Shown here: piece after piece, positions 22,171 through 41,586 of the stretch
Position numbering within the stretch: position 1 is the first letter of the stretch
Layout of the letters: every line of letters starts with the position of its first letter
Source: a phage
Direction: 5' to 3' (one strand)
Sequence record: PV467749.1
Length of the DNA: 64,000 nucleotides
Notes under the pieces: model-generated
What the model saw: the letters and a program-made list of their open reading frames with translations, nothing else
What the model was told of the DNA's origin: nothing
Databases searched by the model: none
Translations under genes and position numbers: made by a program

Positions 22171-22203
22171 ATTATAGCAAAAAGGGCTGACCGAAGTCAA
22201 CCC
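22171..22203 (-). terminator. fused terminator/promoter module copy 1
   Basis: gggctgaccgaagtcaaccc 22184-22203 (minus sense GGGTTGAC-UUCG-GTCAGCCC + T5). TTGACT lies in the stem, then an 18-nt spacer and TATAAT (22171-22176). Confidence 0.7.
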
Positions 22204-22610
22204 TTTTTTCTTTCAATCAAACATAGTCTACCAGAATGTACCATGCGATGGTGATTAGAACAAAGAATCATACACTTTCGAATTTCATCTTTGATAGCAT
22301 CTCGACTTTTACTGAACATAGAACTTGGTGTATGTTCTTTGGTATTAGGGTCAAGATGGTGAAAGTCTAAACATTCTGGATACTTCATCATACAAACACT
22401 ACAACCATAAAATGATTTAACTCTGGTCATGAAATCTTTATTTTTTCTTTTGATTTCTTCAAGTTTTTTGACATCAGTTTTTTTATTTCTGGTTTTCTTA
22501 CTGGTAATATTACTACAACCTTTGCATGTATTTCTATGTTTCCCAGTATCACTTCTTATACCAAATTCACTAATGTCTTTTTCAATATTACACGTGATAC
22601 ACTTCTTCAT
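22197..22610 (-). CDS. HNH endonuclease
   Basis: Cys-rich N-terminus; LDFHHLDPNTK...ILCSNHHRMVH. Confidence 0.75.
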   Translation of the reverse strand: MKKCITCNIEKDISEFGIRSDTGKHRNTCKGCSNITSKKTRNKKTDVKKLEEIKRKNKDFMTRVKSFYGCSVCMMKYPECLDFHHLDPNTKEHTPSSMFSKSRDAIKDEIRKCMILCSNHHRMVHSGRLCLIERKKG

Positions 22611-22894
22611 TGTTTAATCCATTTATTCAACAATGCACCCAACTTCACAATCTCATACCCATCCAGATAGCCATAGGAACACTCAGGTGTTTCATAAGTT
22701 GAACCATCATGGATACCTTGGCATTGGCTTTTGGAACGTTCAAGCAATCGTTGCAGTACTGATACGTCATCAAGAACGTAATACAAGTTAGCATATGGGT
22801 CCGTCACAATACAGTACTTAAACATACCAAATGTATCAATCGATTTTTCAACCTTAGCAAATTGTTTCTTTTCTTTATTATACAGTGCGTACAT
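22607..22894 (-). CDS. hypothetical protein
   Basis: Start moved to ATG 22894 (ggag SD; TAATATG junction with the upstream stop). Confidence 0.6.
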   Translation of the reverse strand: MYALYNKEKKQFAKVEKSIDTFGMFKYCIVTDPYANLYYVLDDVSVLQRLLERSKSQCQGIHDGSTYETPECSYGYLDGYEIVKLGALLNKWIKQ

Positions 22895-22895
22895 A

Positions 22896-23267
22896 TTAAT
22901 CTCCACAATCAAGTTTAACTAACTTACCACCCAGATACCCAAAGTTTTCTGGCTTCGCATCTGAATAGAAGAAGTCAGTACTCAACTCTGAATCCAATGC
23001 TAAAGCACACAACTCCACCCAAAATAAACCCCTATGTTGTACTGGCTTACAACGTTTCTGTACAGTTACTAGTCCAGTACATGATGACCACAACGTAGGG
23101 CAGATACCACTATCACTACGCTTGGAGTACTGCATCCAAGAACGTTCATTGAGGTTAGCTATCATCCCTGTTAAGAATAGCTTCCAACTTTTAAAGGTTG
23201 GAATCTTGATAGCATATTCCCCAATGAGTATGACAGTTCGGGTTGCACCTTTCAAATCTATATTCAT
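22896..23267 (-). CDS. minimal protein-kinase-like ORF (tentative)
   Basis: YAIKIP (beta3 Lys-like), SDAKPENFG (catalytic-loop-like D-x-K-x-x-N), C-terminal KLDCGD (DFG-like); only 123 aa. Confidence 0.35.
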   Translation of the reverse strand: MNIDLKGATRTVILIGEYAIKIPTFKSWKLFLTGMIANLNERSWMQYSKRSDSGICPTLWSSCTGLVTVQKRCKPVQHRGLFWVELCALALDSELSTDFFYSDAKPENFGYLGGKLVKLDCGD

Positions 23268-23276
23268 ATTTTTTAA

Positions 23277-23528
23277 TTAGAAGAACACAAACCAAGTCCA
23301 GAATAAATTCCACACTACAAATAAAGACATAGTGGTTTTATGTACAATATCAGCAGTACTGGTCCATCCTCCACCGTGTCCTATTCCATTTATGAATAGA
23401 ACTAAGAACAAGATACCATTTACTACAATAGTACATAGTAAGTACACAAACACATTCCATGCAAGTTCAGGGGATACTAACGTAAATGGTAAAACAATTA
23501 GTAGTATTAGAACTAATAAAATTTTCAT
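23277..23528 (-). CDS. small membrane protein
   Basis: 83 aa, three hydrophobic segments. Confidence 0.6.
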   Translation of the reverse strand: MKILLVLILLIVLPFTLVSPELAWNVFVYLLCTIVVNGILFLVLFINGIGHGGGWTSTADIVHKTTMSLFVVWNLFWTWFVFF

Positions 23529-23556
23529 TTATCGCCTCACTTAATTAACGTGACAA

Positions 23557-23733
23557 TTAGTACGAATCAGATTCCCAGTACTCGATTGCTTCTTTCAGCA
23601 ATTCTTTAGCACGTTGTTTTGCAATGCGAGCGGGTAACAGATATGTGTACATTAACTGACGCTTCACTTCATTCAGTGAAAGCTGTTCATGGTACAGTGC
23701 ATCCATCAGTCGATTACGAGTACGTAGTTTCAT
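23557..23733 (-). CDS. small hypothetical protein (58 aa, below ORF-track cutoff)
   Basis: Hand translation MKLRTRNRLMDALYHEQLSLNEVKRQL...EYWESDSY fills an otherwise empty 200-nt gap. Confidence 0.5.
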   Translation of the reverse strand: MKLRTRNRLMDALYHEQLSLNEVKRQLMYTYLLPARIAKQRAKELLKEAIEYWESDSY

Positions 23734-23744
23734 ATAAGTTATCC

Positions 23745-24299
23745 TTATTTCAAAGAATCATAGTAAGCAGTGTCAAAGATTGGAGTCATAATAACATAGT
23801 CAATACGGTCAATGTAAGTTGAACTCCACATTTCTGGTTTGTCATAAAATTGACGCTCGCGTTCATTCATACGAGTCAGTACTTCTTCCAATTTACTACG
23901 TGAAGCCATCAATGTATTACGCGATCCATAAGTGAAGTACTCAGTCCATTGATATTCATATTCAGTACTGATAGATTGAATAGTACCATCTTTGAAATGA
24001 GCTAAGGCATATCCTTTCTCTACAAAGTTATCAGGTGGAAGAACACTATCTGGATTAGTTTTCAATGCTTTGGTTAACTTTTCTTTAATTTCAGTTAACG
24101 TGCATACTGAACGAATGTTCTTCAGGTTTGATACTTGAAAATCACTGTACTTTCCAAAGAAAAATACACGCCAATCTTTAGGTTCATTATCAGATACGGT
24201 AATATTCGGATGATGGGCGAGTAAACGAAGAAGGCCAGCTTTGTGACCGTTAATGTAGATCTCATGGATGTGGTTAGCAGTTTTCTTAAAAGTAATCAT
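23745..24299 (-). CDS. hypothetical protein
   Basis: Start moved to MITFKK (ATG 24299, SD gaggaa), downstream of promoter 24346-24373. Confidence 0.65.
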   Translation of the reverse strand: MITFKKTANHIHEIYINGHKAGLLRLLAHHPNITVSDNEPKDWRVFFFGKYSDFQVSNLKNIRSVCTLTEIKEKLTKALKTNPDSVLPPDNFVEKGYALAHFKDGTIQSISTEYEYQWTEYFTYGSRNTLMASRSKLEEVLTRMNERERQFYDKPEMWSSTYIDRIDYVIMTPIFDTAYYDSLK

Positions 24300-24345
24300 G
24301 ACAATTCCTCGATTGTGGGATGAGAAGTTCATCCCCTTGATAAAC

Positions 24346-24373
24346 ATTATACAGTACTGAATGAGTTTGTCAA
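24346..24373 (-). promoter_or_regulatory. sigma70-type promoter
   Basis: Minus sense TTGACA-aactcattcagtactg-TATAAT (16-nt spacer). Confidence 0.7.
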
Positions 24374-24374
24374 C

Positions 24375-24755
24375 TCAAAATAAATTCATTTCATGTGCGT
24401 ATTGTGGTTCAAGATGCGATAAGTTTTTGAAGCTTTCTTTCAACTCAGCATCATCTACATACACCGTGCCTGGTACATTCCCCATAGTGAAACCTACCCA
24501 CACAGTCATGTCACCAGTCCCTAAGCGTGGCATTGATAGCGAACCATCAGGTGAAACATCAAACGCTACACTGAAGTCATCAGTAACAACGTCAGAACCA
24601 TTTTCGAGAATAATACATCCACTATCTTTAAGCTTCTGAATGTGGATAGCAGCCTCTACAGCACGTTTGAAGTTATAGTAAGACTCTTTATCCTCAAACA
24701 TTGATTGTTTAATCAGACGCTTGTTTAGCTCGGTTACTTTGTGCATTTGACGCAT
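24375..24755 (-). CDS. hypothetical protein
   Basis: 126 aa ORF on the minus coding strand. Confidence 0.6.
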   Translation of the reverse strand: MRQMHKVTELNKRLIKQSMFEDKESYYNFKRAVEAAIHIQKLKDSGCIILENGSDVVTDDFSVAFDVSPDGSLSMPRLGTGDMTVWVGFTMGNVPGTVYVDDAELKESFKNLSHLEPQYAHEMNLF

Positions 24756-25012
24756 TACTTATCCATCTCCCACAGTTGTAGAATTTCATAAGAGCCTGGT
24801 GGTGCTGGATTCCTGATCTCAGGGAATTGAGTACTTTTAGGATTTCCACCAGCATTAAATTCGTCAAGTAATGATTCCAGTTCGCGACGATCCTGAACAA
24901 CATAAACACAATCACCTGAACCTTCTTCGAGAATCATTTCACTTCCTGCACAATCCCATACTGTTGAGATACATAGAATCTCTTTTGTATTTTTATTACG
25001 CAATGCAAACAT
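24755..25012 (-). CDS. hypothetical protein
   Basis: 85 aa; 1-nt overlap with the downstream gene. Confidence 0.6.
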   Translation of the reverse strand: MFALRNKNTKEILCISTVWDCAGSEMILEEGSGDCVYVVQDRRELESLLDEFNAGGNPKSTQFPEIRNPAPPGSYEILQLWEMDK

Positions 25013-25020
25013 AGCACCCC

Positions 25021-25365
25021 CTATCGATTTGGCATTTTATCTCGTAATCTAATGAGATAATCAACCACAGACCATGTTGAAATGAAAGTGATATAAGTAC
25101 CGAAGAATCCTACCAGAATAAAGGCAACAAGTGTACTCCCATTTGGATCTTCAGCTTTAATACCGATGATACCATCAAATACAGTGAAAAATGTAGACAT
25201 ACACGTTAAACAGATGTACATCACCAATAAGAATTCATGTTTCAATGATGGATATAAACGGTCAAAGAGTTTATAAAATTTAAAGTACAGTAGGAGTATA
25301 CCAACAAAGACATAGAAAGTAAACAGTGTTGTTATGATATATGATATTAAATTTAAATTATACAT
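25021..25365 (-). CDS. small multi-TM protein, family A member
   Basis: LYFKFYKLFDRLYPSLK; tail RLRDKMPNR; start moved to ATG 25365 (ggag SD). Confidence 0.7.
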   Translation of the reverse strand: MYNLNLISYIITTLFTFYVFVGILLLYFKFYKLFDRLYPSLKHEFLLVMYICLTCMSTFFTVFDGIIGIKAEDPNGSTLVAFILVGFFGTYITFISTWSVVDYLIRLRDKMPNR

Positions 25366-25366
25366 C

Positions 25367-25708
25367 TCAACGCTCCGGTAGATTATCACGTAATGTTTTG
25401 ATTCGATTATACAATTTCATTGCTACATTTCCAAATAAACCAAAACCCATTACTAAAATGTATGCGATGATCATAGTAATAATTACAATAGTACCTAGAC
25501 TGTAATGTACTGCACTGATACCCATTATTGTTTCTACAATGATGTGAGCAACAGAAATAATCAAAAGTACTACTACAATTGGATGATTTGGATACATTCG
25601 GTTAAACAATGTTTTGTACTTAAAGAAGTACAGTACTCCACCAAATAAGAAGTACACAATGTAGATTGATGCAACTGCATAAGCAAACGCATTAGTGTAA
25701 AAAATCAT
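25367..25708 (-). CDS. small multi-TM protein, family A member
   Basis: LYFFKYKTLFNRMYPNH; tail LRDNLPER. Confidence 0.7.
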   Translation of the reverse strand: MIFYTNAFAYAVASIYIVYFLFGGVLYFFKYKTLFNRMYPNHPIVVVLLIISVAHIIVETIMGISAVHYSLGTIVIITMIIAYILVMGFGLFGNVAMKLYNRIKTLRDNLPER

Positions 25709-25717
25709 TATCAATCC

Positions 25718-26056
25718 TTACTTTTCAGGGATTTTATTACGCCACTCATCGATGCGATGAAGCAGTTTAAAGAGCAAAAATATCGGAACAGTAGCTATCA
25801 TAGTAGCAATTGTTAGTAATGTCAACACCGATACGAGATTTAATTCGTCAGTACTATATCCACATACCAGTGCTTCAATTATCCCCCACGTACATACACT
25901 GAACATCAAAAATGAAATTGGTGCATCGTAGTATATGCGTTGATACAAGGTCGTGTATCGGAAGAATGCAATAATGTAACAAAACATGTAATACACCCAA
26001 ATTAACGATACTACATAAAATGATACCTTATTAATTAATTCAAAATGATGTTCCAT
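25718..26056 (-). CDS. small multi-TM protein, family A member
   Basis: AFFRYTTLYQRIYYDAP; tail WRNKIPEK. Confidence 0.7.
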   Translation of the reverse strand: MEHHFELINKVSFYVVSLIWVYYMFCYIIAFFRYTTLYQRIYYDAPISFLMFSVCTWGIIEALVCGYSTDELNLVSVLTLLTIATMIATVPIFLLFKLLHRIDEWRNKIPEK

Positions 26057-26065
26057 TTTTACCCC

Positions 26066-26341
26066 CTACATATATTCTAAGAATAATGTATTAGCTTCGT
26101 CTATGTTCTTAAGATAATACATGTAATACAGATTTGGTTGTCCGTCTTTTGAACTCAAATCAAAGTACTTTAAACTATGCACCTTCATGACAAAAACAAA
26201 TAATGACTTAAAACCAATCTCACCGTACTTAATAAACAGTTCATCTAAATGAATGTAACTCTTAGTTTCAGATAATTCCTTCACATCATCTTCAATTTCT
26301 TGTAAGCGAAGTTTACCGATTAAGTTTTCAAATGAACGCAT
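26066..26341 (-). CDS. hypothetical protein
   Basis: Start moved to MRSFENL (aaggaac SD); avoids overlap with the upstream stop. Confidence 0.6.
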   Translation of the reverse strand: MRSFENLIGKLRLQEIEDDVKELSETKSYIHLDELFIKYGEIGFKSLFVFVMKVHSLKYFDLSSKDGQPNLYYMYYLKNIDEANTLFLEYM

Positions 26342-26352
26342 GATGTTGTTCC

Positions 26353-26766
26353 TTATGCTGGTACACAATTTTTTATAATGAATACACGTTTCATGAATGA
26401 ACTTTCATATACGTACTTCAGTTTACCATTTTCACGCATACGATGAAACACATCTTTACCGCTAGTACTCCATGTTGAACCAGTCTCTGCATCAACATTG
26501 TTCATTACACCAGATGTTACATTCACCCCGTACTTGAAGCTAAAGGTACTACCTTCTTCTACTAGAGGGATTGGTGTACTACGTTCATGTTCCAGTACAA
26601 GTTTACTGCCGATGATGTTGTACGAAGTTAGCTTGCATTTTAAAACACCCATCTCTTGTGCAGTTGGGTAATTCTTCTCAAATAAATCAGATACTTCATT
26701 TGCATAACAAACTGAACTAATCATAAGAAGTAATGAACTGATAGAACGGAAAATAACTTTTAACAT
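26353..26766 (-). CDS. secreted small protein (signal peptide, two-Cys family)
   Basis: N-terminus MLKVIFRSISSLLLMISSVCYA; Cys near the mature N-terminus region and at KNCVPA. Confidence 0.65.
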   Translation of the reverse strand: MLKVIFRSISSLLLMISSVCYANEVSDLFEKNYPTAQEMGVLKCKLTSYNIIGSKLVLEHERSTPIPLVEEGSTFSFKYGVNVTSGVMNNVDAETGSTWSTSGKDVFHRMRENGKLKYVYESSFMKRVFIIKNCVPA

Positions 26767-26792
26767 GTTTGCCTCCAGTAGTTGATGAAATG

Positions 26793-26825
26793 ATTATAGC
26801 AAAAAGGGCCGACCGAAGTCAACCC
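26793..26825 (-). terminator. fused terminator/promoter module copy 2
   Basis: gggccgaccgaagtcaaccc 26806-26825; gattatagc (TATAAT on the minus strand) 18 nt from the stem TTGACT. Confidence 0.7.
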
Positions 26826-26832
26826 TTTTCTT

Positions 26833-27207
26833 TTATATTTTACATGTCATGTCTGGTTTTGGCTTTTCATTCTTTGGCTTTTCAAATGGATTTGGCTTAG
26901 GGGACTTTTTATCTTTGTCATCTTTAGCTTTCTTTTTGTTTTCTTTTTTATCCGATTTGTCAGCTTTGTCTTTCTTATCTTTTGAATCTTTGTCAGCTTT
27001 AGATTGTGGTTCCTCACATACAGCAGTTTTTGGCTCCGGCATATCACATGAGTTATCCACTGGTTTAATGAACTCTTTACAGTTGTAGAAGTATAAACTT
27101 TCATTGGTAGTAAGATTGTGGAATCTAAAGGTATTTTCACCATTAGTATATACTTTCTTAGTACTCTCAATATCATTACACATTGCAACTGTGTCACCGG
27201 AATTCAT
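26833..27207 (-). CDS. hypothetical protein with K/D-rich low-complexity tail
   Basis: KADKDSKDKKDKADKSDKKENKKKAKDDKDKK... Two other ORFs in this stretch are alternative frames of the repeat. Confidence 0.55.
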   Translation of the reverse strand: MNSGDTVAMCNDIESTKKVYTNGENTFRFHNLTTNESLYFYNCKEFIKPVDNSCDMPEPKTAVCEEPQSKADKDSKDKKDKADKSDKKENKKKAKDDKDKKSPKPNPFEKPKNEKPKPDMTCKI

Positions 27208-27445
27208 GCTCGATACCTATTACATCCGACTTACGTTCAGATAGTATTCCAGACGTATATCGATCTTTGTTATCAAATGCATTGAACCCTATAGTTTTAT
27301 TATTGTCATGTACCAATCCTCTAGTGTAAGACTTGGTATAGAACTCACCGTTTCTAAACTCCTGTCTAGCAATGGAGCACTGGTATTCAGTACTATAAAC
27401 TATATCAGTAAACAATACAAGTGAAAATAAAACATATTTAAACAT
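27194..27445 (-). CDS. secreted small protein (signal peptide)
   Basis: MFKYVLFSLVLFTDIVYS then TEYQC. Confidence 0.6.
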   Translation of the reverse strand: MFKYVLFSLVLFTDIVYSTEYQCSIARQEFRNGEFYTKSYTRGLVHDNNKTIGFNAFDNKDRYTSGILSERKSDVIGIEHEFR

Positions 27446-27488
27446 TGCATTACCTCTTATAAAACCCTCTACAATATTTACAAAAAAA

Positions 27489-27506
27489 GGTTGACCGAAG
27501 TCAACC
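27489..27506 (-). terminator. fused terminator/promoter module copy 3
   Basis: ggttgaccgaagtcaacc flanked by A7 / T4. Confidence 0.65.
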
Positions 27507-27516
27507 TTTTAAATGT

Positions 27517-29028
27517 TTATTTTTTATCCTTTCCAACACCACGGTCGTACTCTTTGAATGAGTTATCAAGTGTAGTTAGTGCATACTCATATGCTTCTGG
27601 TGATTCAATGTCAACATCATCTGCACCATTTACTAAATCAGCCCAAGCCTTTTGAAGTTTACGAGCATTGTTACCAACATTATCTTTAATCCAACTAATA
27701 TTTTTGTTGATACTTTTACTATCAGCACCTGCTTTTTTACCAATCTCGGATATCCACATCATTAACTTTTGAAGTTCATGAATTGATTTATCAGTCATTT
27801 CAAGATGTTCTTCTTCCATACCGTCAGAATCAGATGAACCAACGTCAATTCCATGTTTAGCTAATAGTTTACCAAGTTCAAAGAATGCAGCTTCAGCAGG
27901 GAAGTCATAACCTTTGTCTTTGTAGTTATTCCATGCACTATCAAACTCGTCAACAAAACGGTTAGCATAATCTGGATTTTTAACTAATGCTTTATATACT
28001 GCCATTGCATGTTCAAAACCTTCTTTATCTGACCCAAACTCTTCCATCTCAGGACGATGAATATATCCATCCATATCAACGGTATCAGGTAGATCTTCTT
28101 GTTCAGGTTCTACATCTTTCTGTTCAACTGCACCTTCTTCATCTGCACGCTTTAGATAACCATCTGGTGTTACCTTCTCACCATGTTCTGCTTCATACTT
28201 TTTCATAGTGTTGAATGCAGCATCCATAGCTGTTACGAAGCGACTTTTCTCACCTTGTACATAAGATTTAAGTGCACTGTTAACTGCATCTGATACGAGC
28301 TTAACCTTATCGTCTTTACCTTCTAAACGGTTTTCAAGTTTAGCCAGTACATTCTTGATTTGCTGGGCATTAGCACGGTCTGCTTTACCAATACTATCAA
28401 AAGTTTTAAGAATACCATCAAGACTTGCTTCACCCTGTTCAGGTTCTTTCGAATCTTCTTTGTGTGTACCTTCAAGTGCACGCATGATAGTACTGAATAC
28501 TTCAGTGGGTTCAGTACTCTTATTACCTTTCATTGCATCAAGTACAGCTTGTGCTTTACCTTTGAGTTCTTCTTTAGGAACTGCCTGTAGTGCTTTGACA
28601 ATACCCTGAATCAACTGTGGTTTGTTAGCAAAGATCTTACCTAAGTTATCAGATAACTCTTTAACAGGGTTAGCTGCTTTAGGAGCTTCTGGTTTTGGTT
28701 CTTCTTTAGGAACTGCTTGTTCTTTCTCAGCACGTTCCATATCAGCAAGGCGTTGTTTCTGTGTTGCGTTAAGAAGACCTAATGAGTTAACATAACGTAG
28801 CTTTTCTAGCTCAGTCATGTTCTCAGTACTCTTAACTTCACCTGCTTCTGCGTTTGCCTTACCAGCTAAACCTGTCCCTTGATTACGTGAACCACGTGAC
28901 CCCTGTCCTGCTTGGTAGCTATTTTGACGACGATTGCGTTCACTCCATTTATCAGAGTGACCTGCCATGTTCCCGCCATTTTTATCAGTAAATTGACCTG
29001 GCATTTGATTTCTCTCCATAGATTTCAT
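27517..29028 (-). CDS. large acidic/K-E-rich hypothetical protein (503 aa)
   Basis: Longest ORF of the early block; segments LRYVNSLGLLNATQ and ...IVKALQAVPKEELKGKA are paralogous to ORF 29861-30259. Confidence 0.7.
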   Translation of the reverse strand: MKSMERNQMPGQFTDKNGGNMAGHSDKWSERNRRQNSYQAGQGSRGSRNQGTGLAGKANAEAGEVKSTENMTELEKLRYVNSLGLLNATQKQRLADMERAEKEQAVPKEEPKPEAPKAANPVKELSDNLGKIFANKPQLIQGIVKALQAVPKEELKGKAQAVLDAMKGNKSTEPTEVFSTIMRALEGTHKEDSKEPEQGEASLDGILKTFDSIGKADRANAQQIKNVLAKLENRLEGKDDKVKLVSDAVNSALKSYVQGEKSRFVTAMDAAFNTMKKYEAEHGEKVTPDGYLKRADEEGAVEQKDVEPEQEDLPDTVDMDGYIHRPEMEEFGSDKEGFEHAMAVYKALVKNPDYANRFVDEFDSAWNNYKDKGYDFPAEAAFFELGKLLAKHGIDVGSSDSDGMEEEHLEMTDKSIHELQKLMMWISEIGKKAGADSKSINKNISWIKDNVGNNARKLQKAWADLVNGADDVDIESPEAYEYALTTLDNSFKEYDRGVGKDKK

Positions 29029-29069
29029 ATTGTTTATTCTCTATGACTATATTTATAGTATAAAGAAAA

Positions 29070-29088
29070 GGTTGACCGAAGTCAACCC
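29070..29088 (-). terminator. fused terminator/promoter module copy 4
   Basis: ggttgaccgaagtcaaccc; tatact -10-like element 18 nt downstream in the minus sense. Confidence 0.65.
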
Positions 29089-29109
29089 TATTTTCACTGT
29101 ACTATACCA

Positions 29110-29406
29110 TTAGTAGTTACAGTCAGCTTTCGCTGTGAATGTTTTACTTTCACCTCGTTGTGTGGTGATTCGTCCGAGTAAAGTAGTTTTGTCAATAGTC
29201 ATTGTAGTTAGTACTGGAACATTACCTTCAAAGTCAATAGCTTTGAAATTGTAGGTGGTTTCATTCTCCACTACACTTGGACCAAAGAGTTCATATGTGT
29301 TGATTTCAAGTGTGTCACCATCTGAACGCAACAGTGTGCAGTCCAGATTAGGAGTAGCCAGTACTGGGAAAGCCAAACACATCATCATTACAATAATTAA
29401 TTTCAT
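29110..29406 (-). CDS. secreted small protein (two-Cys family)
   Basis: Start moved to MKLIIVMMMCLAFPVLA (aggag SD); mature form ATPNLDC...KADCNY. Confidence 0.65.
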   Translation of the reverse strand: MKLIIVMMMCLAFPVLATPNLDCTLLRSDGDTLEINTYELFGPSVVENETTYNFKAIDFEGNVPVLTTMTIDKTTLLGRITTQRGESKTFTAKADCNY

Positions 29407-29407
29407 T

Positions 29408-29665
29408 TCACTTCTCCTGTTTTTTCTTAGGATCAACCAATGACCAAATGAAGAATCCGAGAATTACAAGTACCCACAGAATCATGATAAAGAAAGCAAA
29501 CAGTACAATAGTATTTGTCAAAAAGAAATACAATAGAATGTTCGACCCAATACTACATACAATCAATGCAGCTTCATGTTTAACAACACGAATGGCTGTA
29601 ATGAGTGCGGGAAGAAATCCGACAAATAACAGTACTAATGCATATAGTGATAATGTTTCAGCCAT
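29408..29665 (-). CDS. small membrane protein
   Basis: 85 aa, three hydrophobic segments. Confidence 0.6.
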   Translation of the reverse strand: MAETLSLYALVLLFVGFLPALITAIRVVKHEAALIVCSIGSNILLYFFLTNTIVLFAFFIMILWVLVILGFFIWSLVDPKKKQEK

Positions 29666-29787: not shown

Positions 29788-29847
29788 AATTTAATACCTC
29801 ACGTTGTTTGTATTTTGTATCACTTGATGAAAATATTATACGACAAA

Positions 29848-29868
29848 GGGCTGACTGAAGTCAACCCC
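29848..29868 (-). terminator. fused terminator/promoter module copy 5 (variant loop)
   Basis: gggctgactgaagtcaacccc; cgtataat on the minus strand downstream. Confidence 0.6.
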
Positions 29869-30259
29869 TTTTAATTATTTTTTTAAACTTATGTTTTTCG
29901 CCTTCAATAGAGTTCACGATGTCATCATGAATCTTGCGAAGGTTATGAGTTTTCTTTAGTGCTTCATGTAGTGCACGGAATGCTGCGTGTACTGTTGCCT
30001 TGAAGTGCTCTTTAGGAGTCACTTTAAGTTTCTCAATGATATCACGTACATAAATTGGATGATCTTCAAATACACGATTCAATTCATGGCCTAGTGATTC
30101 TAGACTGAAAGCTTTTTCACGTGAAGGACGATCATGTGCAAGACTTTGGTCAGGCTTTAGTAGACCTAGTGAATCAAGATACTTATGCTTATGTGCATTA
30201 TCAATTCCAGAAATATCCACATCATGCGATGGATCTTTCTTATTCCATTTATCAACCAT
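29861..30259 (-). CDS. hypothetical protein, short paralog of ORF 27517-29028
   Basis: KYLDSLGLLKPDQ and IIEKLKVTPKEHFKATV align to the 503-aa protein; aaggag SD. Confidence 0.65.
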   Translation of the reverse strand: MVDKWNKKDPSHDVDISGIDNAHKHKYLDSLGLLKPDQSLAHDRPSREKAFSLESLGHELNRVFEDHPIYVRDIIEKLKVTPKEHFKATVHAAFRALHEALKKTHNLRKIHDDIVNSIEGEKHKFKKIIKRG

Positions 30260-30370
30260 TTCATACTCCTTAAAGAGATAAATTACTTTAATATTTATAC
30301 TTCATGTGCTGTTTATTTCAACAGACACTTAAGATTATATCACATATGAAATGGTTGTTCCAACGTCAAA

Positions 30371-32622: not shown

Positions 32623-32967
32623 TTAATACCATTCTTTTAAACCATCAAGTTCGGCTATGTGAGTAATTATAACACAGATAACACTCAGGTCAAGCATTAT
32701 TTGCTCATAATTTAATTTTATTCTATCATCATTGTATGCTCGAAAAACAACATCAAAGTCAAAGTAGTTATCGTTTTCATCATTCATTGGAATGATTCTA
32801 TATCTACGTCTACCATCATCATTGAATACAGTCAAACACTGTTTGAATTTCTTCATTAACTGTGTAGTCAATGCATTGTAATATGCAACATCATATTGTG
32901 TACAACGTGGGTCATTGGGTAGATAAAACGATACAAATTTTTTTAATTCTATTTGAGTCTTATCCAT
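32623..32967 (-). CDS. hypothetical protein
   Basis: Start moved to MDKTQIEL (gagg SD; ATGGATAA overlap with the upstream stop). Confidence 0.6.
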   Translation of the reverse strand: MDKTQIELKKFVSFYLPNDPRCTQYDVAYYNALTTQLMKKFKQCLTVFNDDGRRRYRIIPMNDENDNYFDFDVVFRAYNDDRIKLNYEQIMLDLSVICVIITHIAELDGLKEWY

Positions 32968-33400
32968 ATACAGCCTCATGTATTACTCTTTTACTTTGGC
33001 GGTACTCATCCTTTGCTTCTCTCACTGACATGATACGAACCAGATTGGCACTACCACAATAGTACTGAACCTGACTACGACCAATGTCAACATGATTATC
33101 AGGAACTTCATATACTGATACAGCAAACCCTGCACGATGTAATTTACCCAAGTCCATAGTAAAGAACTTAAACAAATCATTCAAACTCTGACAGCCAAAT
33201 GCCCAGCCACGTTTGATTGAATAGATTCCATCTTCAGTTGGTTCTGGTTGGAATTGCGAAGGCGTGGTCATGCACAAACGGTCAAATCCATTTTTAGTAC
33301 TGTATCGTGAAGAGTACCGTGCGAACGGACCTACTGTTTTTGCTGGATCTAAGTTAGGTTCAATATAACTGAATTTAAGTTCAAAACGATATACGTACAT
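32960..33400 (-). CDS. hypothetical protein
   Basis: 146 aa ORF. Confidence 0.6.
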   Translation of the reverse strand: MYVYRFELKFSYIEPNLDPAKTVGPFARYSSRYSTKNGFDRLCMTTPSQFQPEPTEDGIYSIKRGWAFGCQSLNDLFKFFTMDLGKLHRAGFAVSVYEVPDNHVDIGRSQVQYYCGSANLVRIMSVREAKDEYRQSKRVIHEAVYG

Positions 33401-33427: not shown

Positions 33428-33461
33428 TAATTATAACAAAAAAGGCTGACCGAAGTCAACC
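33428..33461 (-). terminator. fused terminator/promoter module copy 6
   Basis: ggctgaccgaagtcaacc 33444-33461; aattataac (TTATAAT on the minus strand). Confidence 0.65.
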
Positions 33462-33647
33462 TTTATTTTGAAGTTCTTGAACTAATTGTCGTACTTCTTT
33501 GATGTTATGACACTGCTTTACAGTGAAGTAATCATACTTACGACCATAGGTTCTTGGGTCATCACCTTCCATATACTGCTGCACATCAAAGATTTGTAAG
33601 TAGGGATGCTGCATAACACGAATGTTATCACATTGGTAAATCAACAT
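33456..33647 (-). CDS. hypothetical protein
   Basis: Start moved to MLIYQCDN (gagga SD). Confidence 0.55.
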   Translation of the reverse strand: MLIYQCDNIRVMQHPYLQIFDVQQYMEGDDPRTYGRKYDYFTVKQCHNIKEVRQLVQELQNKG

Positions 33648-33651
33648 ATGT

Positions 33652-34002
33652 TTAGTCCTCATATTTACACAAGCCACCGAATGTTGCCTGTTTTGCTGCC
33701 TTACGCATCATCACAAGTTTAACATACTGTTCACCATTACTTTCTTCATATACATCAACTTGAAGAAATGCAAGCATATTGGGATCAGTATCATTCGAGT
33801 ACTGCGTAAAACTAATGTCACCTACAGTATGTTCTTTAACAAAATTATACACTTCACCATCGATATAAACGATAGTATGGTCATCGCTATCACCTTGGTA
33901 AATGTGTTTAATATCACCTTCAGTACAGACTAGTCCAGGTAATGGTTCTGCATAAGACATACCACATATAATCATACAAACAAAAAACAAAATTACTTTC
34001 AT
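33652..34002 (-). CDS. secreted small protein (two-Cys family)
   Basis: MKVILFFVCMIICGMSYA; GLVC...GGLCKYED; IVYIDGEVYNFVKE aligns to ORF 34393. Confidence 0.65.
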   Translation of the reverse strand: MKVILFFVCMIICGMSYAEPLPGLVCTEGDIKHIYQGDSDDHTIVYIDGEVYNFVKEHTVGDISFTQYSNDTDPNMLAFLQVDVYEESNGEQYVKLVMMRKAAKQATFGGLCKYED

Positions 34003-35210: not shown

Positions 35211-35238
35211 ATTATACAGTACTACAAACGTTTGTCAA
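35211..35238 (-). promoter_or_regulatory. sigma70-type promoter
   Basis: Minus sense TTGACA-aacgtttgtagtactg-TATAAT. Confidence 0.65.
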
Positions 35239-36117: not shown

Positions 36118-36150
36118 AGTATCCTCAGTTGCAGTTGTTTTTTGATGTAG

Positions 36151-36577: not shown

Positions 36578-36580
36578 TTG

Positions 36581-36802
36581 TCATTCTCCATCATATTCAG
36601 TGAGTATTACACTATGTACGGTTTCAATATAGCGTTGTGTTTTTGATGTGTTGTACTTAGTTACTTCATCAAACAATTTAAATAGTGCATGTGTTGGACT
36701 TAATGCACGAACAAATACATCAATCTTCTGTACTTCTTTCTTATAACCACGTACATTATTAAACTCAGATACATGCTCATACACAATGTAGTAACGATTC
36801 AT
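36581..36802 (-). CDS. hypothetical protein
   Basis: 73 aa. Confidence 0.55.
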   Translation of the reverse strand: MNRYYIVYEHVSEFNNVRGYKKEVQKIDVFVRALSPTHALFKLFDEVTKYNTSKTQRYIETVHSVILTEYDGE

Positions 36803-37314: not shown

Positions 37315-37514
37315 TATTTCGCCTCGATAACCTTAAGGTTAACAAAATCACCTTTTACTTTCATGCATTTGAATTCAGTGCGAGTTTCATCCCCACTATC
37401 GCGAGGCCAATGAGTAGCAGAGTAGCACTGGTCTGGTGTTTTATATACACCTTCACCAATAGTACGAGTGATTTCACCATTGGTGAGAACTACTGCGAGA
37501 TATAAAGTAAACAT
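37314..37514 (-). CDS. hypothetical protein
   Basis: Start moved to MFTLYLAV so that it does not overlap the 50-aa ORF upstream. Confidence 0.5.
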   Translation of the reverse strand: MFTLYLAVVLTNGEITRTIGEGVYKTPDQCYSATHWPRDSGDETRTEFKCMKVKGDFVNLKVIEAK

Positions 37515-37518
37515 GATA

Positions 37519-37671
37519 TTCGCCTTAGAATAATTTATTAATAATAATAGCACCCAACGCAAGAACTGCAATAATTACAGATACCCACATTACTGCATTC
37601 ACTGTACCAGTTAGTTCTTTATCAAACTCCCTGCACTTCTTACGGTACTCTTCCCACTCTTTGTTATTCAC
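37519..37671 (-). CDS. 50-aa C-terminally anchored TM peptide (below cutoff)
   Basis: Hand translation (GTG)NNKEWEEYRKKCREFDKELTGTVNAVMWVSVIIAVLALGAIIINKLF; GTGA overlap with the upstream stop. Confidence 0.4.
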
Positions 37672-37883
37672 ACTGCCGCTCCTAATAGGTCGGTAGCTTT
37701 CTTCAGTACTACGTCAATTGTTTCCAGTACTGCACCTTTGTGTTCAATTGATACAATATTATTATAAGTATCAAGGTCCAAGTACTCCATGTATTCAGTT
37801 TTGAATACACGAACATCAGTACTAGTGATTTTAATATCACAACCTTTATCCCAAATAACCTGCATCATTTCATTGGTAGTCAT
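37668..37883 (-). CDS. hypothetical protein
   Basis: 71 aa. Confidence 0.55.
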   Translation of the reverse strand: MTTNEMMQVIWDKGCDIKITSTDVRVFKTEYMEYLDLDTYNNIVSIEHKGAVLETIDVVLKKATDLLGAAV

Positions 37884-38158
37884 TATTCAACCTTATCATA
37901 AACAAGTTTGTGTGTGCTTAGTACTTTGTTGAGATGTCCAGGGCATTCATATACATACAATCTCTCCTGACGTTTTTCCCAACCACCACAGATACGACCT
38001 GATTGTGTACATACCTCATACTCGTTAATAAAAGACTTACCTGTGAATGTACAATCCTGACGAACTAAGTCTTTTGCACTAAACCTGCCGTCATCATTAC
38101 ATGCTGTAAGAAACATTGTACAGAATACAAAGACAACTGTCAATAGTTTTTTAATCAT
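37883..38158 (-). CDS. putative lipoprotein
   Basis: MIKKLLTVVFVFCTMFLTAC: signal peptide plus lipobox L-T-A-C. Confidence 0.7.
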   Translation of the reverse strand: MIKKLLTVVFVFCTMFLTACNDDGRFSAKDLVRQDCTFTGKSFINEYEVCTQSGRICGGWEKRQERLYVYECPGHLNKVLSTHKLVYDKVE

Positions 38159-38523
38159 TGAACATCACCCCAACGGAAACCTTTCATATAATTCAAATTC
38201 ACCTCAACGAGTTCATGTGTTTTTGTGCACCAAATGGAGAGAGTTTTTGTAACATCACCAGGTTCAGATTCATAATTCACACAATAACCTTCAATGCGTA
38301 GAGTTTTGTTAGTCCAATGTTCCCACTCAATCCAAATTTCATTTGGATAATAAACCATATCTTCTTTGAACGTATGGAATTGATCCATTGGTAAATGACC
38401 TTTAACTTCAATTACTTCAGCACTTCGAGCCAGTTTTTCAAGCTTGTACTTTATTTCAGCAAGATATTCTTCATCATTCAGACGAGTTAATAAATCTGTT
38501 GCACGGGTTGTATCAAGGCTCAT
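38155..38523 (-). CDS. hypothetical protein
   Basis: 122 aa. Confidence 0.6.
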   Translation of the reverse strand: MSLDTTRATDLLTRLNDEEYLAEIKYKLEKLARSAEVIEVKGHLPMDQFHTFKEDMVYYPNEIWIEWEHWTNKTLRIEGYCVNYESEPGDVTKTLSIWCTKTHELVEVNLNYMKGFRWGDVQ

Positions 38524-38771
38524 TGTTGTACTCCATTAATCACTGAAGTATTGATTCGTGTTTTACCGCTGCTGTATCCAGTACTGGTATTTGCATTAGG
38601 GCAATAAACTGTATACAAGGTTACACCAGCACCGTCCTTTTGCATACGATAAATCTTACATCCTGCTTCTTGTAATTCAATAGGGAGAATAAAATCACTT
38701 GTGCGTTCTTTTGTTGAAGCGTCACATGCAGTGAGTAAAAATGCAACGAGTACTGCTACGATATATTTCAT
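38520..38771 (-). CDS. putative lipoprotein
   Basis: MKYIVAVLVAFLLTAC: lipobox L-T-A-C. Confidence 0.7.
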   Translation of the reverse strand: MKYIVAVLVAFLLTACDASTKERTSDFILPIELQEAGCKIYRMQKDGAGVTLYTVYCPNANTSTGYSSGKTRINTSVINGVQQ

Positions 38772-39079
38772 TAACGAACCTCCACTTCTTGAGAAAGAGC
38801 ATGAGTCAGTGCATTTGAATTCGAACTATTCATTTCACGCTGACATACAAACATAATGGCATCTTGTACTGAACCTGCGATTTCATACTCACGACCTTCT
38901 GGATCAGTTACCAGATGTTCAACGATACAACCACCACGCAGTACAGAAGCACCAGTACTTACACTAATCCTGTAACCTAAAAAATCAAACTGCATACATG
39001 CGTCAGTAGGTTTCATCCAATAACCGCTGTTTTGATTCAAATCGATGATTACAAAACCTTGAGTGTTAGTTTGAAACAT
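38771..39079 (-). CDS. hypothetical protein
   Basis: 102 aa. Confidence 0.6.
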   Translation of the reverse strand: MFQTNTQGFVIIDLNQNSGYWMKPTDACMQFDFLGYRISVSTGASVLRGGCIVEHLVTDPEGREYEIAGSVQDAIMFVCQREMNSSNSNALTHALSQEVEVR

Positions 39080-39172
39080 AGTTAATTCCTCATTTAATTT
39101 AAAAGGGTGGAAACGCAGTGACGAGTACGATTATGCTGTCTTTCCTTTCACTGCATTCCCTTTGATATAAAC

Positions 39173-39200
39173 ATTATACAGTACTGATATCTTATGTCAA
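39173..39200 (-). promoter_or_regulatory. sigma70-type promoter
   Basis: Minus sense TTGACA-taagatatcagtactg-TATAAT. Confidence 0.7.
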
Positions 39201-39203
39201 GTA

Positions 39204-39287
39204 TTAATCACCAAAAATCATCAGATACCCAAACCAACCCACACAGACGACTAAGCTAACAATACCAAAGACAATCTCTAAAGTCAT
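39204..39287 (-). CDS. 27-aa hydrophobic peptide (below cutoff)
   Basis: Hand translation MTLEIVFGIVSLVVCVGWFGYLMIFGD; aagga SD. Confidence 0.35.
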   Translation of the reverse strand: MTLEIVFGIVSLVVCVGWFGYLMIFGD

Positions 39288-39296
39288 GTTGCATCC

Positions 39297-39497
39297 TTAA
39301 TCAATGATTTTATATTCACGATGACCATAGAATCCAGCCTCAAGGATGCGATTACCATCAGCATCTTCCAAATCCCACCCACGGGATGTTTCGGCAATAA
39401 TAGTCATGATGTGACCTCTTGGGAAAATTCCACTCATGGTGGATACATCTTCAAGTAATTGAACCTTCTTACCAACATTTGTATTTGATTTAAACAT
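39297..39497 (-). CDS. hypothetical protein
   Basis: 66 aa. Confidence 0.55.
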   Translation of the reverse strand: MFKSNTNVGKKVQLLEDVSTMSGIFPRGHIMTIIAETSRGWDLEDADGNRILEAGFYGHREYKIID

Positions 39498-39506
39498 ACT
39501 TTACCC

Positions 39507-39689
39507 TTATTCGTTGATTACGTCAAGTACTTTGTCCAGTTTCTTACCAATACTATCCTTTGGTTTCTCACCATTCTGGAATACATTAGTACTGCAATAC
39601 TCAGGACGGGTATTAGGGAACTTCTCGTTCATCCAGGAGTGACCATATACACCAAGAATGATACCTACGATAAGAATGATGATTTGCAT
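39507..39689 (-). CDS. small N-terminally anchored membrane protein
   Basis: MQIIILIVGIILGVYG. Confidence 0.55.
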   Translation of the reverse strand: MQIIILIVGIILGVYGHSWMNEKFPNTRPEYCSTNVFQNGEKPKDSIGKKLDKVLDVINE

Positions 39690-39703
39690 GATATATCCTC
39701 TAA

Positions 39704-40498
39704 TTAAATTACATATGGTTTATAGTAATGAATCTCGTTTGATATTGCAGCGAAGACTTTGTTATTAAATCTTTCACCATAATCACGAAGAGATTCACCT
39801 TCTTCGCTTTCAATAAAGTAATTATATACTGGTAGACGTGCGGTGTCAACACCTATAAATGATTTCATGTAAATTTGTACTAAACGATTCATTCCTTCAT
39901 TTAAGCATTGCACCTCAAAGTGCTTGATACCTTTGTCTAAATGTTTGAATGCATTAATGATACCACGTTTAAAATCACGCTGCATAGTACTGAATAGATT
40001 CTCAGGGAACACTGTAATAGGTGACATTGATTTAAGAATGTATGTATCTTTAGCATTCTTAATATACTCAATGAAGCAGTAGTTAACGTCAGGCTCGATA
40101 GAACGATCAGCGTTATGATACCAGTACTTAAACTCACTGTACTCAGCAAACTTATGCTGGCGTAATGCGTTACAATCCTCACACAGTGCAGTCATGTTCT
40201 CTTTATCATTGCCACCCTGGAGACAGTCCAGTACATTATGGTCTAACGTCATGCGTACAAGGCGTTTACCTTTAAGTACATAAGGTCTGAATTTATAACG
40301 GTCTTTAGTACTGTGCTTATGTAAAGTGAATACCACATTGGATTCACCACAACAATCACATTTAAAGCCATCGCGTGACATTACATGAATGAGTTTTCGA
40401 GTATTTGGGCCGAACTCAGATTTAGTAATGTTGCCAACAATTTCTGATGGGTCGTAGTATTTTGAATTCCGGCGAATCAATTCATCTATAGTGCTCAT
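39704..40498 (-). CDS. HNH endonuclease
   Basis: CDCCGESN...TLDHNVLDCLQGGNDKENMTALCEDCNALRQHKF; start moved to MSTIDEL (ggag SD). Confidence 0.7.
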   Translation of the reverse strand: MSTIDELIRRNSKYYDPSEIVGNITKSEFGPNTRKLIHVMSRDGFKCDCCGESNVVFTLHKHSTKDRYKFRPYVLKGKRLVRMTLDHNVLDCLQGGNDKENMTALCEDCNALRQHKFAEYSEFKYWYHNADRSIEPDVNYCFIEYIKNAKDTYILKSMSPITVFPENLFSTMQRDFKRGIINAFKHLDKGIKHFEVQCLNEGMNRLVQIYMKSFIGVDTARLPVYNYFIESEEGESLRDYGERFNNKVFAAISNEIHYYKPYVI

Positions 40499-40499
40499 T

Positions 40500-40727
40500 T
40501 TATATTTCTCCAGCAAGACACTCAAAAGTGACTTTTTTAACTTCGATAACTCGTACCAAATAGTATCCATGAAAGAAATTAAAACCAATCATTTGTGATA
40601 ATGCATCTGCTTCAGATTTTGCACGGATACATGATAGATATAGTTCTCGTATATCGCCATCCAACGATGCTTGTTTCTCGTCATTGATAACAATAGAACG
40701 AATCTCAAAACGAACACCATAACTCAT
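40500..40727 (-). CDS. hypothetical protein
   Basis: 75 aa. Confidence 0.55.
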   Translation of the reverse strand: MSYGVRFEIRSIVINDEKQASLDGDIRELYLSCIRAKSEADALSQMIGFNFFHGYYLVRVIEVKKVTFECLAGEI

Positions 40728-40933
40728 TCTGTTTGTCCAACAATTAGTTTCTCTTTAGTATTACTATTATAACACCACATTAATTCTTCACCAACTGTTC
40801 TAAGTGAAACGCTGTTTACTTGTTCATATGTACTGTCACGTACTGCAATACATTGATTCATTGAATTCATTGGGGTGATTTGTACACCAGATTGTGGTGA
40901 AAGAGCAATAATTAAAAAGATTACTGAATTCAT
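40724..40933 (-). CDS. small secreted/membrane protein
   Basis: Hydrophobic N-terminus MNSVIFLIIALSP. Confidence 0.55.
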   Translation of the reverse strand: MNSVIFLIIALSPQSGVQITPMNSMNQCIAVRDSTYEQVNSVSLRTVGEELMWCYNSNTKEKLIVGQTE

Positions 40934-41566
40934 TAGATATTCCTCGATGGTTAATCATCCATCTCTTCGAGATGTCTGTTCGCTTCTAATACTACGTATT
41001 CTACGCGAATGAATCATAACTGTCAAGGACTTTTAATATTGACGGGATTTGAGGAAGGGATTTTTCTTCCCCCCGCACGGAGGGAAATTTGACGCTGATG
41101 GTATCAGAGCTATTGCATTGAAGATTACTCATAACGAGTGCGAAAGCGGGTCATCCTGTTTCTCTCTACTTCAGTTTCATATGACGGTCTACACTTTTAA
41201 ACATAGTGTATCTTCATTAAGTATCTATGCAATCAAATACTTAATGTGAGTACTCAAATTTTGGACGCAACTTTCCTGTACAAAATTCGATAACTCTCCC
41301 TTAGATAATTCGTAAGGTGTTATCCTTATATGTCTATCGAGGAACCACCAGCTATCCTAACGTGGTTCTTTATACAGCCGCATTGCCGTGAGGGGTTCAA
41401 ACTATGCCCACATCTAACGGGTTTCTTTTGCTGTTCGCTACAATGAAAAGCTCATCTATCCTTTACATTTTCAAGTGAAGTAGGGGAAGATTGTCAGTAC
41501 CAGTACTGTCATTGTGATTGTACATAGATCATTGTATCACCATTAATAAATTTGTCCCATAAAAAA
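40934..41566. other. long non-coding, hairpin-rich region (candidate structured RNA or cis element)
   Basis: About 630 nt with no credible ORF on either strand and local GC enrichment. Stems include cattaagtat/atacttaatg (10 bp), gaaccac/gtggttc, tacac/gtgta and a GAAA-loop hairpin. Confidence 0.4.
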
Positions 41567-41567
41567 A

Positions 41568-41586
41568 GGCTGACCGAAGTCAACCC
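41568..41586 (-). terminator. fused terminator module copy 7
   Basis: ggctgaccgaagtcaaccc flanked by A7 / T3, directly after the sigma gene stop. Confidence 0.7.

Follow-up and report, generated by a model that had tools for sequence, protein, structure and literature searches.

In T4-type phages, regulatory cassettes named promoter-early stem-loops (PeSLs) were defined in RB49/phi1 as combining an AT-rich stretch with a consensus sigma-70 promoter and a stem-loop located in one of five positions; in one subclass, the stem-loop overlaps the -35 hexamer (Arbiol et al. 2010, PMC2839356). These elements sit between a stop codon and the next Shine-Dalgarno/ATG and are concentrated in hyperplastic regions. 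Fusions of RB49/phi1 PeSLs to lacZ revealed termination about equal to that of rrnB T1 and a promoter activity of ~13,000 Miller units, and recombination between the copies yields mini-circles (PMC2839356). PeSLs were extended to PST/T4 and nt-1/KVP40, including variants joined to middle promoters, and the nt-1 elements have the consensus A3-4 G3-loop-C3 T3-4 with TTGYVH-N17-TAWWAT (Comeau et al. 2014, PMC4122927). For the RaK2-like group of phages, a literature search found no description of a stem-loop promoter; the papers on RaK2, CBB, PA5oct, and fEgEco12 report RpoD-like promoters and ARNold terminators separately, never fused. Here, a 64,000-nucleotide stretch of phage DNA (record PV467749.1), referred to below as the window, was analyzed for a short hairpin module that occurs in it seven times. 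These modules are most probably PeSL-type composite regulatory cassettes of an Asteriusvirus jumbo coliphage.

Comparison of the window with other phages revealed 99% identity to Escherichia phages WPEC3, WPEC5, BF17, fEgEco12, and EC.P1 and ~86% identity to 121Q, PBECO4, and G17. WPEC3, EC.P1, 121Q, and their kin are Asteriusvirus jumbo phages with genomes of 350 to 385 kb, and the window is assigned by its sequence to a jumbo coliphage of this genus (RaK2-like group). From ~18 kb to 64 kb, the genes run along the minus strand. This region is of early type, with small hypothetical genes and many near-consensus sigma-70 promoters, and it includes a gene for an RpoD-like phage sigma factor.

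A search of the window for TTGACCGAAGTCAA with up to two mismatches revealed seven matches in a single orientation, at 22187, 26809, 27491, 29072, 29851, 33446, and 41570 (modules 1 to 7, in this order; Table 1). The motif is expected 0.40 times by shuffling, and none of 100 shuffles reached seven. All modules lie on the minus (gene-sense) strand between 22 and 42 kb, and neither an nhmmer profile built from the seven nor a loose regular expression detected an eighth copy in the window. The original prediction had placed seven hairpins at the same sites and had called module 5 a variant; the loop of this copy is UUCA in place of UUCG.

Read in gene sense, the unit of about 70 to 75 bp consists of an A-tract, the hairpin GGGUUGAC-UUCG-GUCAGCCC or a close variant, and a U-run. 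The hairpin comprises 20 nt (8+4+8), with a GC-rich stem of 7 to 8 bp (11 to 13 bp counting the A/U extension) and a 4-nt loop, which is UUCG in six of the seven copies. Three to six A residues stand immediately 5' of the stem in every copy. Folding of 45-nt pieces produced the predicted hairpin for all seven, with energies of -13.9 to -19.8 kcal/mol and z scores of -3.3 to -5.5. Rfam revealed no family at gathering score at any module and only chance-level matches to terminator ends of small RNAs around module 7 (E values of 0.09 to 0.5). Three types of module were distinguished. Four copies (modules 1, 2, 5, and 6) are full sigma-70 fusions, with TTGACT placed within the 5' arm and loop and TATAAT following at 18 nt, and these four share the tail TATAATnnTTTCATCAA. 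One copy (module 4) is linked to a late-type box, and two (modules 3 and 7), which have no acceptable -10, are of a terminator-only type.

The stem begins 0 to 25 nt past a stop codon or contains the stop, and a GAGG-type Shine-Dalgarno sequence with an ATG is located 20 to 45 nt past the -10, which corresponds to a PeSL-like intergenic placement. For two or three upstream open reading frames (ORFs), the stop codon is the TGA within TTGACT. Just before module 5, a difference of A7 versus A6 (window ORF 29861-30259 on the minus strand versus WPEC3 locus L122, 15575-15958) shifts the stop of a structural-protein ORF: in WPEC3, the stop is a TAA ahead of the hairpin, and in the window, it is the TGA within TTGACT. 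Either a genuine frameshift or an error in the sequencing would account for this difference.

The sequence features of an intrinsic terminator, namely, a GC-rich hairpin and a U-run on the transcribed strand 3' of a gene, are present in the modules. Immediately after the stem, 5 to 7 U residues follow in six of the seven copies; the U-run of module 5 is weak. The GenBank record of G17 lists ARNold terminators at the homologous sites, with -13.5 to -17 kcal/mol, and the BLAST matches in GAP32 and Munch coincide with annotated terminators. Hairpins of the CUUCGG type are described, in the passages of PMC8948821 (referring to Tuerk et al. 1988) and PMC4371310 that deal with them, as frequent between the genes of T4 and other phages and as having varied roles, including mRNA stabilization. 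By this precedent, the module hairpins might protect or process RNA 3' ends, stabilizing the upstream mRNA or marking processing sites with no polymerase stop, a role that could coexist with termination. As an explanation of the modules, 3'-end protection is quite improbable: the U-run directly after every stem is a mark of intrinsic termination that protection does not need, ARNold scores the G17 sites as terminators, and the UUCG loop is not conserved across relatives.

Conservation was analyzed over 36 distinct copies, for which the window was combined with nine Asteriusvirus relatives, two T4-type phages, and Vibrio phage D481. Stem cells are paired in 97.5% of cases, compared with ~61% after the partner is shifted by one column. 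The 5' arm with TTGAC is frozen, and the 3' arm occurs only as GUCAACC, GUCAGCC, GUCGGCC, and GUUGGCC, with U-A changing to U.G. Every one of these changes is wobble compatible, remaining paired in the sense RNA and creating a C.A mismatch in the antisense RNA. In five of the seven window copies, the sense hairpin is 4 to 7 kcal/mol stronger than the antisense hairpin. Two stem pairs display compensatory changes, and the outermost pair switches between G-C and A-U. In the promoter-less orthologue of module 7 that follows the sigma-factor gene in 121Q/G17 (GGUUGGC-UUAU-GCCAACC), a compensatory change from A-U to G-C has converted TTGAC to TTGGC, and the stem is kept. Sense polarity, wobble and compensatory changes, the position after stop codons, and the ARNold calls in G17 together support the earlier proposal that the minus-sense hairpin with its U-run is a probable intrinsic terminator.

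The loop is more variable than the stem. UUCG is the commonest loop in relatives, which also carry UACG, UUCA, UAAG, UUAG, ACUA, AUAA, UAAC, UUUU, UUCU, UUAU, and a flipped CGAA. The UUCG tetraloop helps but does not define the module; the cap proposed in the original prediction is thus found in most window copies, and it is not required. The flipped loop occurs at ~15559 in Turkey5 (locus L131) as GGGTTGAC-CGAA-GTCAACCC, with stem and orientation retained, which suggests that the loop was inverted inside a perfect palindrome.

The same conservation pattern bears on a DNA-level explanation, in which the 8-4-8 inverted repeat over the -35 would be an operator at which a dimeric phage or host regulator silences early promoters; the RNA hairpin would be a by-product. 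A palindrome centered on the -35 has the classical geometry of a repressor site, and the copies cluster in one early-gene block beside the sigma-factor gene. However, in 30 of the 36 distinct copies the DNA palindrome is broken by a T:G position that still forms U.G in the sense RNA. The energy advantage of the sense fold, the 121Q copy that retains pairing and not sequence, and the hairpins kept in copies without any promoter also speak against an operator, which would need neither the obligatory T-run after the stem nor the constant position past a stop codon. These observations make an operator highly improbable.

Analysis of the DNA downstream of TTGACT confirmed the expectation of a TATAAT-like hexamer at 18 nt in at least four copies: exactly four have TATAAT, and a fifth has TATACT at 17 nt. 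TGn precedes the -10 in three of the four TTGACT-18-TATAAT copies. TTGAC is invariant in all copies that have a -10. Because the 121Q/G17 copy demonstrates that the stem does not need TTGAC, this invariance indicates a second constraint, the -35. Among the 27 strongest promoters on the minus strand, a hairpin of -13 kcal/mol or better is found only in the module promoters, so that the fusion forms a distinct subclass; the idea that all early promoters are hairpin fused was rejected, since ~22 other strong promoters have weak hairpins only. A search of IMG/VR with a 16-mer yielded 126 matches, and taking all of them as proof of spread was likewise rejected. About two thirds lie in GC-rich coding sequence and are chance-like, and for this reason only the 24 in an A/T-tract context were used. 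A -10-like hexamer follows TTGACT at 16 to 19 nt in 21 of these 24 terminator-context hairpins versus 8 of 84 other 16-mer matches (Fisher p = 5e-13).

These data argue against the possibility that the modules are terminators only, with TTGAC incidental to the stem and TATAAT belonging to no working promoter or to one that uses another -35. Consistent with terminators alone, two of the seven copies are without a -10, a state conserved in their orthologues in relatives (for module 3, those of WPEC3, WPEC5, 121Q, and G17); the GenBank records of the relatives examined mark only terminators at module sites; and the 18-nt spacer is one base over the optimum. Nevertheless, something besides the stem conserves TTGAC where a -10 follows, the -10-like hexamers recur at the right distance in unrelated viral contigs, TGn and the upstream A-tract are present, and lacZ was strongly expressed from PeSLs built in this way (PMC2839356). 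A terminator-only function is therefore unlikely. The proposal of the original prediction that one element both ends and starts a transcript stands, as a prediction, for the four full fusions; of the other three copies, one is tied to a late-type box and two are of the terminator-only type.

The late-type box of module 4, TATAAATA, is of T4 type and is strongly avoided in the window, with 3 sites against 11.5 expected from shuffles. Two of the sites stand ahead of annotated virion structural protein genes in the otherwise early region, and one stands ahead of tRNA-Asn.

In the proposed mechanism, upstream minus-strand RNA would fold the GGGUUGAC-UUCG-GUCAGCCC hairpin, which together with the U-run would cause intrinsic termination. 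In the DNA, the same bases would act as a host sigma-70 promoter. The 5' arm and the first loop base would provide the -35 TTGACT, and the 3' arm and T-run would provide the 18-nt spacer, often ending in TGn, with TATAAT next. The A-tract and GGG would be placed at the position of a proximal UP subsite, and AAAAAAGGG, just upstream of the -35, resembles the proximal UP-subsite consensus, which Estrem et al. are said to have given in 1999 as AAAAAARNR. A transcript starting ~7 nt past the -10 would not contain the hairpin and would thus escape its own terminator, so that only incoming RNA would be terminated. Each cassette would insulate one small early gene block from the next, and module 4 would join the hairpin to the late-type box. 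From this anatomy, we infer the 3' and 5' ends of the RNAs, the efficiency of both, and the role of the UP element. A more speculative possibility is that, with stop codons inside the -35 and hairpin, termination would hinge on whether the upstream ORF is being translated.

Repeated in one orientation, a unit of ~75 bp is a substrate for homologous recombination that could delete, insert, or swap genes between copies. Modular gene cassettes had been suggested originally, and differences between relatives do begin and end at modules. Window positions 22135-22207 align twice in WPEC3, flanking a 2.6-kb block with denV, an endonuclease gene, and two small genes. The single module 1 of the window is a hybrid of these two copies: it follows the denV-side WPEC3 copy up to GAGGATGAATACATGAC, beyond which it runs into the ATPase-like gene that belongs to the other copy, with the junction within a shared ATGAC at the start codon. 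Such a hybrid is what recombination between two directly repeated modules should yield. At the same locus, EC.P1, 121Q, WPEC5, JP4, and TH47 carry differing gene sets between module copies, and half-modules, cut in or just past the loop, are found in 121Q/G17 and TH47. In 121Q, G17, and JP4, the segment between modules 4 and 5 has been swapped, the breakpoints lying at 29094 and 29824, and TH47 and Turkey5 have a common breakpoint at 29845, at module 5. Of 14 breakpoints in the four closest relatives, 6 coincide with modules (p = 2e-6 by sequence area; p = 0.003 when all gene junctions are taken as equally probable sites). Increased gene conversion among the copies was also considered and was rejected, as the differences between the window and WPEC3 (~1.7% in modules against a background of ~1.1%, by eye) are not clearly above background.

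Free-standing endonuclease genes adjoin some modules. In EC.P1, an HNH_3/NUMOD4 homing-endonuclease gene is inserted immediately after the module 4 hairpin (locus L129, 12597-13124). The Cys-rich ORF just upstream of module 1 is HNH annotated in relatives; 121Q and G17 lack it, and WPEC5 has a truncated version. A promoter repeat of another kind also bounds an insertion/deletion, which indicates that promoter-mediated recombination is general in the region. This 28-bp repeat (39152-39179) is the -10 region of a promoter family with CAGTACTGTATAATG and is duplicated around a 321-bp insertion, a homologue of 121Q gene 173, in WPEC5, 121Q, G17, and JP4; the window has the collapsed form.

Several observations weigh against reading the modules as PeSL-type cassettes. 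Besides the long spacer mentioned above, the last base of TTGACT deviates from the consensus TTGACA. Module 5 combines a weak U-run (UUUGUCGU) with the UUCA loop. Where upstream ORFs stop inside the hairpin, the terminating ribosome could hinder folding and lower termination. Because endonuclease genes adjoin modules, part of the breakpoint enrichment may reflect endonuclease-driven turnover instead of exchange between module copies. Finally, the literature search found no transcript-end or reporter data for Asteriusvirus.

A 58-nt module query matched 204 phage records. RaK2-like genera carry the module at 4 to 15 places per genome, and single or few matches were obtained in KVP40-like Vibrio phages, Aeromonas T4-type phages, and Cronobacter CR3-like phages. 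The syntenic loci of nine relatives hold 8 to 10 copies each. In TH47, 10 of 11 copies lie on one strand within 24.5 kb of the 350 kb read; strict confinement to one locus was rejected, given the outlier copy 26 kb away. The copy in ValKK3 (KVP40-like, T4-type), GGGTTGAC-TGCG-GTCAGCCC-TTTTGTG-TATTAT, fits the nt-1 PeSL consensus. Aeromonas phage 65 (T4-type) has the identical UUCG hairpin with the -10 TACTAT, and the module geometry is also found in the unclassified 253-kb Vibrio phage D481. Nothing similar was detected in 5,426 complete E. coli genomes, and a host origin of the module was rejected on this basis.

Near-identical units of A-tract, GGGTTGAC-loop-GTCAGCCC, T-tract, and -10 are thus present in RaK2-like, KVP40-like, Aeromonas T4-type, and Cronobacter CR3-like phages, and in the CR3-like phages the genes flanking the unit share no nucleotide similarity. 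Together with the homing-endonuclease genes that abut hairpins, the half-modules, and the flipped CGAA loop of relatives, this suggests a further, rather doubtful idea, namely, that the modules are more than passive repeats and delimit the units of a cassette-exchange system common to unrelated large phages. The hairpin or cruciform would then be a preferred nuclease or recombinase target, loosely comparable to integron attC sites, and promoter-equipped genes would be moved between phage families.

TABLE 1 Positions of the seven modules and of associated features in the window
Feature	Position	Strand	Details
Module 1 hairpin, GGGUUGAC-UUCG-GUCAGCCC	22184..22203	minus	-19.8 kcal/mol, z -4.5; sense -12.7 vs antisense -7.5
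Module 1 A-tract	22204-22210	minus	
Module 1 U-run	22176-22183	minus	
ORF upstream of module 1	22197-22610	minus	Stop is the TGA within TTGACT
Module 1 predicted promoter	22171..22200	minus	-35 TTGACT 22200-22195, 18-nt spacer, TGn, -10 TATAAT 22176-22171; 11/12 matches
ATPase-like gene	21369-22142	minus	Predicted to be driven by the module 1 promoter
Module 2 hairpin, GGGUUGAC-UUCG-GUCGGCCC	26806..26825	minus	Two U.G wobbles; -19.1 kcal/mol, z -4.8
Module 2 predicted promoter	26793..26822	minus	TTGACT-18-TATAAT with TGn; upstream of ORF 26353-26766
Module 3 hairpin, AGGUUGAC-UUCG-GUCAACCU, then U7	27488..27507	minus	-15.6 kcal/mol, z -5.1; TAAATA at 18 nt, no acceptable -10; terminator-only type
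Module 4 hairpin, GGGUUGAC-UUCG-GUCAACCU, then UUUCUUU	29069..29088	minus	-14.4 kcal/mol, z -3.4
Module 4 predicted promoter region	29050..29085	minus	TTGACT-17-TATACT (29085-29057), 10/12 matches; overlaps T4-type late box TATAAATA (29057-29050)
Gene downstream of module 4 promoter region	27517-29028		503-amino-acid virion structural protein; annotated structural in 121Q and WPEC3
Module 5 hairpin, GGGUUGAC-UUCA-GUCAGCCC	29848..29867	minus	Loop variant; weak U-run UUUGUCGU; -16.0 kcal/mol, z -5.5
Module 5 predicted promoter	29835..29864	minus	TTGACT-18-TATAAT without TGn
Module 6 hairpin, AGGUUGAC-UUCG-GUCAGCCU, then U6	33443..33462	minus	-14.1 kcal/mol, z -5.0
ORF upstream of module 6	33456-33677		Stop is the TGA within TTGACT
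Module 6 predicted promoter	33430..33459	minus	TTGACT-18-TATAAT with TGn; upstream of ORF 32960-33400
Module 7 hairpin, GGGUUGAC-UUCG-GUCAGCCU, then U7	41567..41586	minus	-13.9 kcal/mol, z -3.3; 8 nt past the stop of the sigma-factor gene; no -10, terminator-only type
Sigma-factor gene (RpoD-like)	41594-42559	minus	
TATAAATA sites	29050-29057, 30292-30299, 56159-56166	minus	T4-type late box
Signal-peptide-like ORF (by eye)	26353-26766		3 cysteines
Signal-peptide-like ORF (by eye)	27194-27445		1 cysteine
Signal-peptide-like ORF (by eye)	29110-29436		3 cysteines
Candidate structured RNA	41100-41500	minus	ORF-free, ~400 nt
Likely promoter with TGATACAAT, beside candidate RNA	~41519-41527		
Group I intron (Rfam RF00028)	56433-56747	minus	99 bits, E 2e-24

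Several of the modules had also been described as flanking genes for secreted proteins with two cysteines. Three ORFs downstream of modules do have signal-peptide-like N termini by eye; their cysteine counts (Table 1) do not fit, and the two-Cys gene idea was rejected.

Other promoter arrangements were observed in the region. The early-promoter family mentioned above, TTGACn-N10-CAGTACTGTATAATG with an AGTACT palindrome, is found on the minus strand at 58151, 57730, 56971, 39200, 35238, and 24373. Directly after a strong promoter, TTGACA-18-TATACT (52406-52377, minus strand), comes a terminator-like hairpin of 12 bp, AAGGCUGAUUCAUAAUGAAUCGGCCUU, with a U-run (52375-52349). With the stem-loop downstream of the -10, this promoter/terminator overlap at 52349-52406 would represent another PeSL-like geometry. 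In relatives, a conserved motif resembling AACCCAYAGGGTGCA stands ~25 nt past some module copies whose -10 is TATTAT or TATACT. This motif was seen in loci L055 (121Q), L072 (CBB), L013, L090, L094, and L119 and at ~96,990 in the TH47 genome, is absent from the window, and possibly marks the start of another noncoding transcript.

The ORF-free stretch directly downstream of module 7 has the appearance of a structured RNA that has not been described before. Its identity to the copies of the 121Q group is 96%, compared with 84 to 87% for the flanking genes. Homologues were found in 62 RaK2-like jumbo phage records, at 3 to 5 places per genome, where they are unannotated or carry tiny hypothetical ORFs; TH47 has four dispersed copies, at ~49.7, 146.4, 262.3, and 345.9 kb. 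An alignment of eight sequences revealed long invariant blocks between variable helices, and RNAalifold predicted 70 pairs, 35 of them with compensatory changes. Rfam gave no match at E ≤ 1 for the window copy or six homologues. In the relative PA5oct, four noncoding RNAs have been defined by transcriptome sequencing (PMC7318152). The candidate RNA may deserve more attention than the modules themselves. Phage tRNA genes (Thr 54301, Asn 56080, Ser 56847, and Ser 58755) surround the group I intron.

The modules extend the PeSL idea, to terminate, promote, and recombine in one short element, from T4-type to RaK2-like jumbo phages. For annotators, they offer an easy way to divide the early part of these 350-kb genomes into transcription units, and they would explain why isolates with 99% identity differ in gene content between the sigma-factor and ATPase-like genes. 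Their natural variants illustrate two codes in one sequence, with the -35 arm frozen and the other arm drifting only via G.U wobble. For synthetic biology, they represent a compact, naturally tested insulator part.

Comparison of the modules with PeSLs revealed that every sequence-level feature defining a PeSL is present. The sigma-70 hexamers of PeSLs, 16 to 18 nt apart, correspond to TTGACT-18-TATAAT in four copies and TTGACT-17-TATACT in one, and the two copies without a -10 are comparable to the "degraded (1/2) PeSLs" of PMC4122927. The AT-rich stretch upstream of the -35 has its counterpart in the A-tract of all seven copies. A stable stem-loop lies in or beside the promoter, the window modules belonging to the subclass in which it overlaps the -35, and a stop codon is located upstream and a Shine-Dalgarno sequence with a start codon downstream. 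As with PeSLs, the modules lie in variable early regions of small ORFans, at boundaries of insertion, deletion, and replacement between close relatives. There are also differences. RB49 PeSLs have five stem-loop positions, whereas the window modules have one geometry (the -35 in the 5' arm), a near-single sequence, and an 18-nt spacer. Promoter and terminator activity and mini-circles were demonstrated for RB49/phi1; for the window modules, both activities are predicted from the sequence. The published carriers are all T4-type (Straboviridae), and the window phage is a RaK2-like jumbo phage of 350 to 385 kb, yet the same module occurs in the Straboviridae ValKK3 and Aeromonas phage 65. The carrier family is a matter of where PeSLs have been encountered and has no bearing on their mode of action.

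The modules resemble canonical intrinsic terminators of E. coli in the GC-rich stem, the 4-nt loop, and the U-run, and the A-tract upstream of the stem gives them the shape of a bidirectional terminator; they differ in that the stem is bound by a second code, the -35 hexamer. With the T4 CUUCGG hairpins, they share a C(UUCG)G tetraloop hairpin of phage intergenic RNA, favored for its unusual stability and rapid folding. In the passages cited above, however, those hairpins are described as RNA stability or structure elements and not as carriers of a -35, and the module loops are replaceable in relatives. Like the modules, the "morons" of lambdoid phages and the Correia elements of Neisseria are short repeats that carry transcription start and stop signals to neighboring genes. 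Morons are single genes without conserved flanking repeats, and Correia elements resemble transposons in having terminal inverted repeats and target duplications; these features are not seen in the window modules. The modules thus belong to the published PeSL class. Because this design has already been published, no new principle is involved; what is new is the RaK2-like host lineage.

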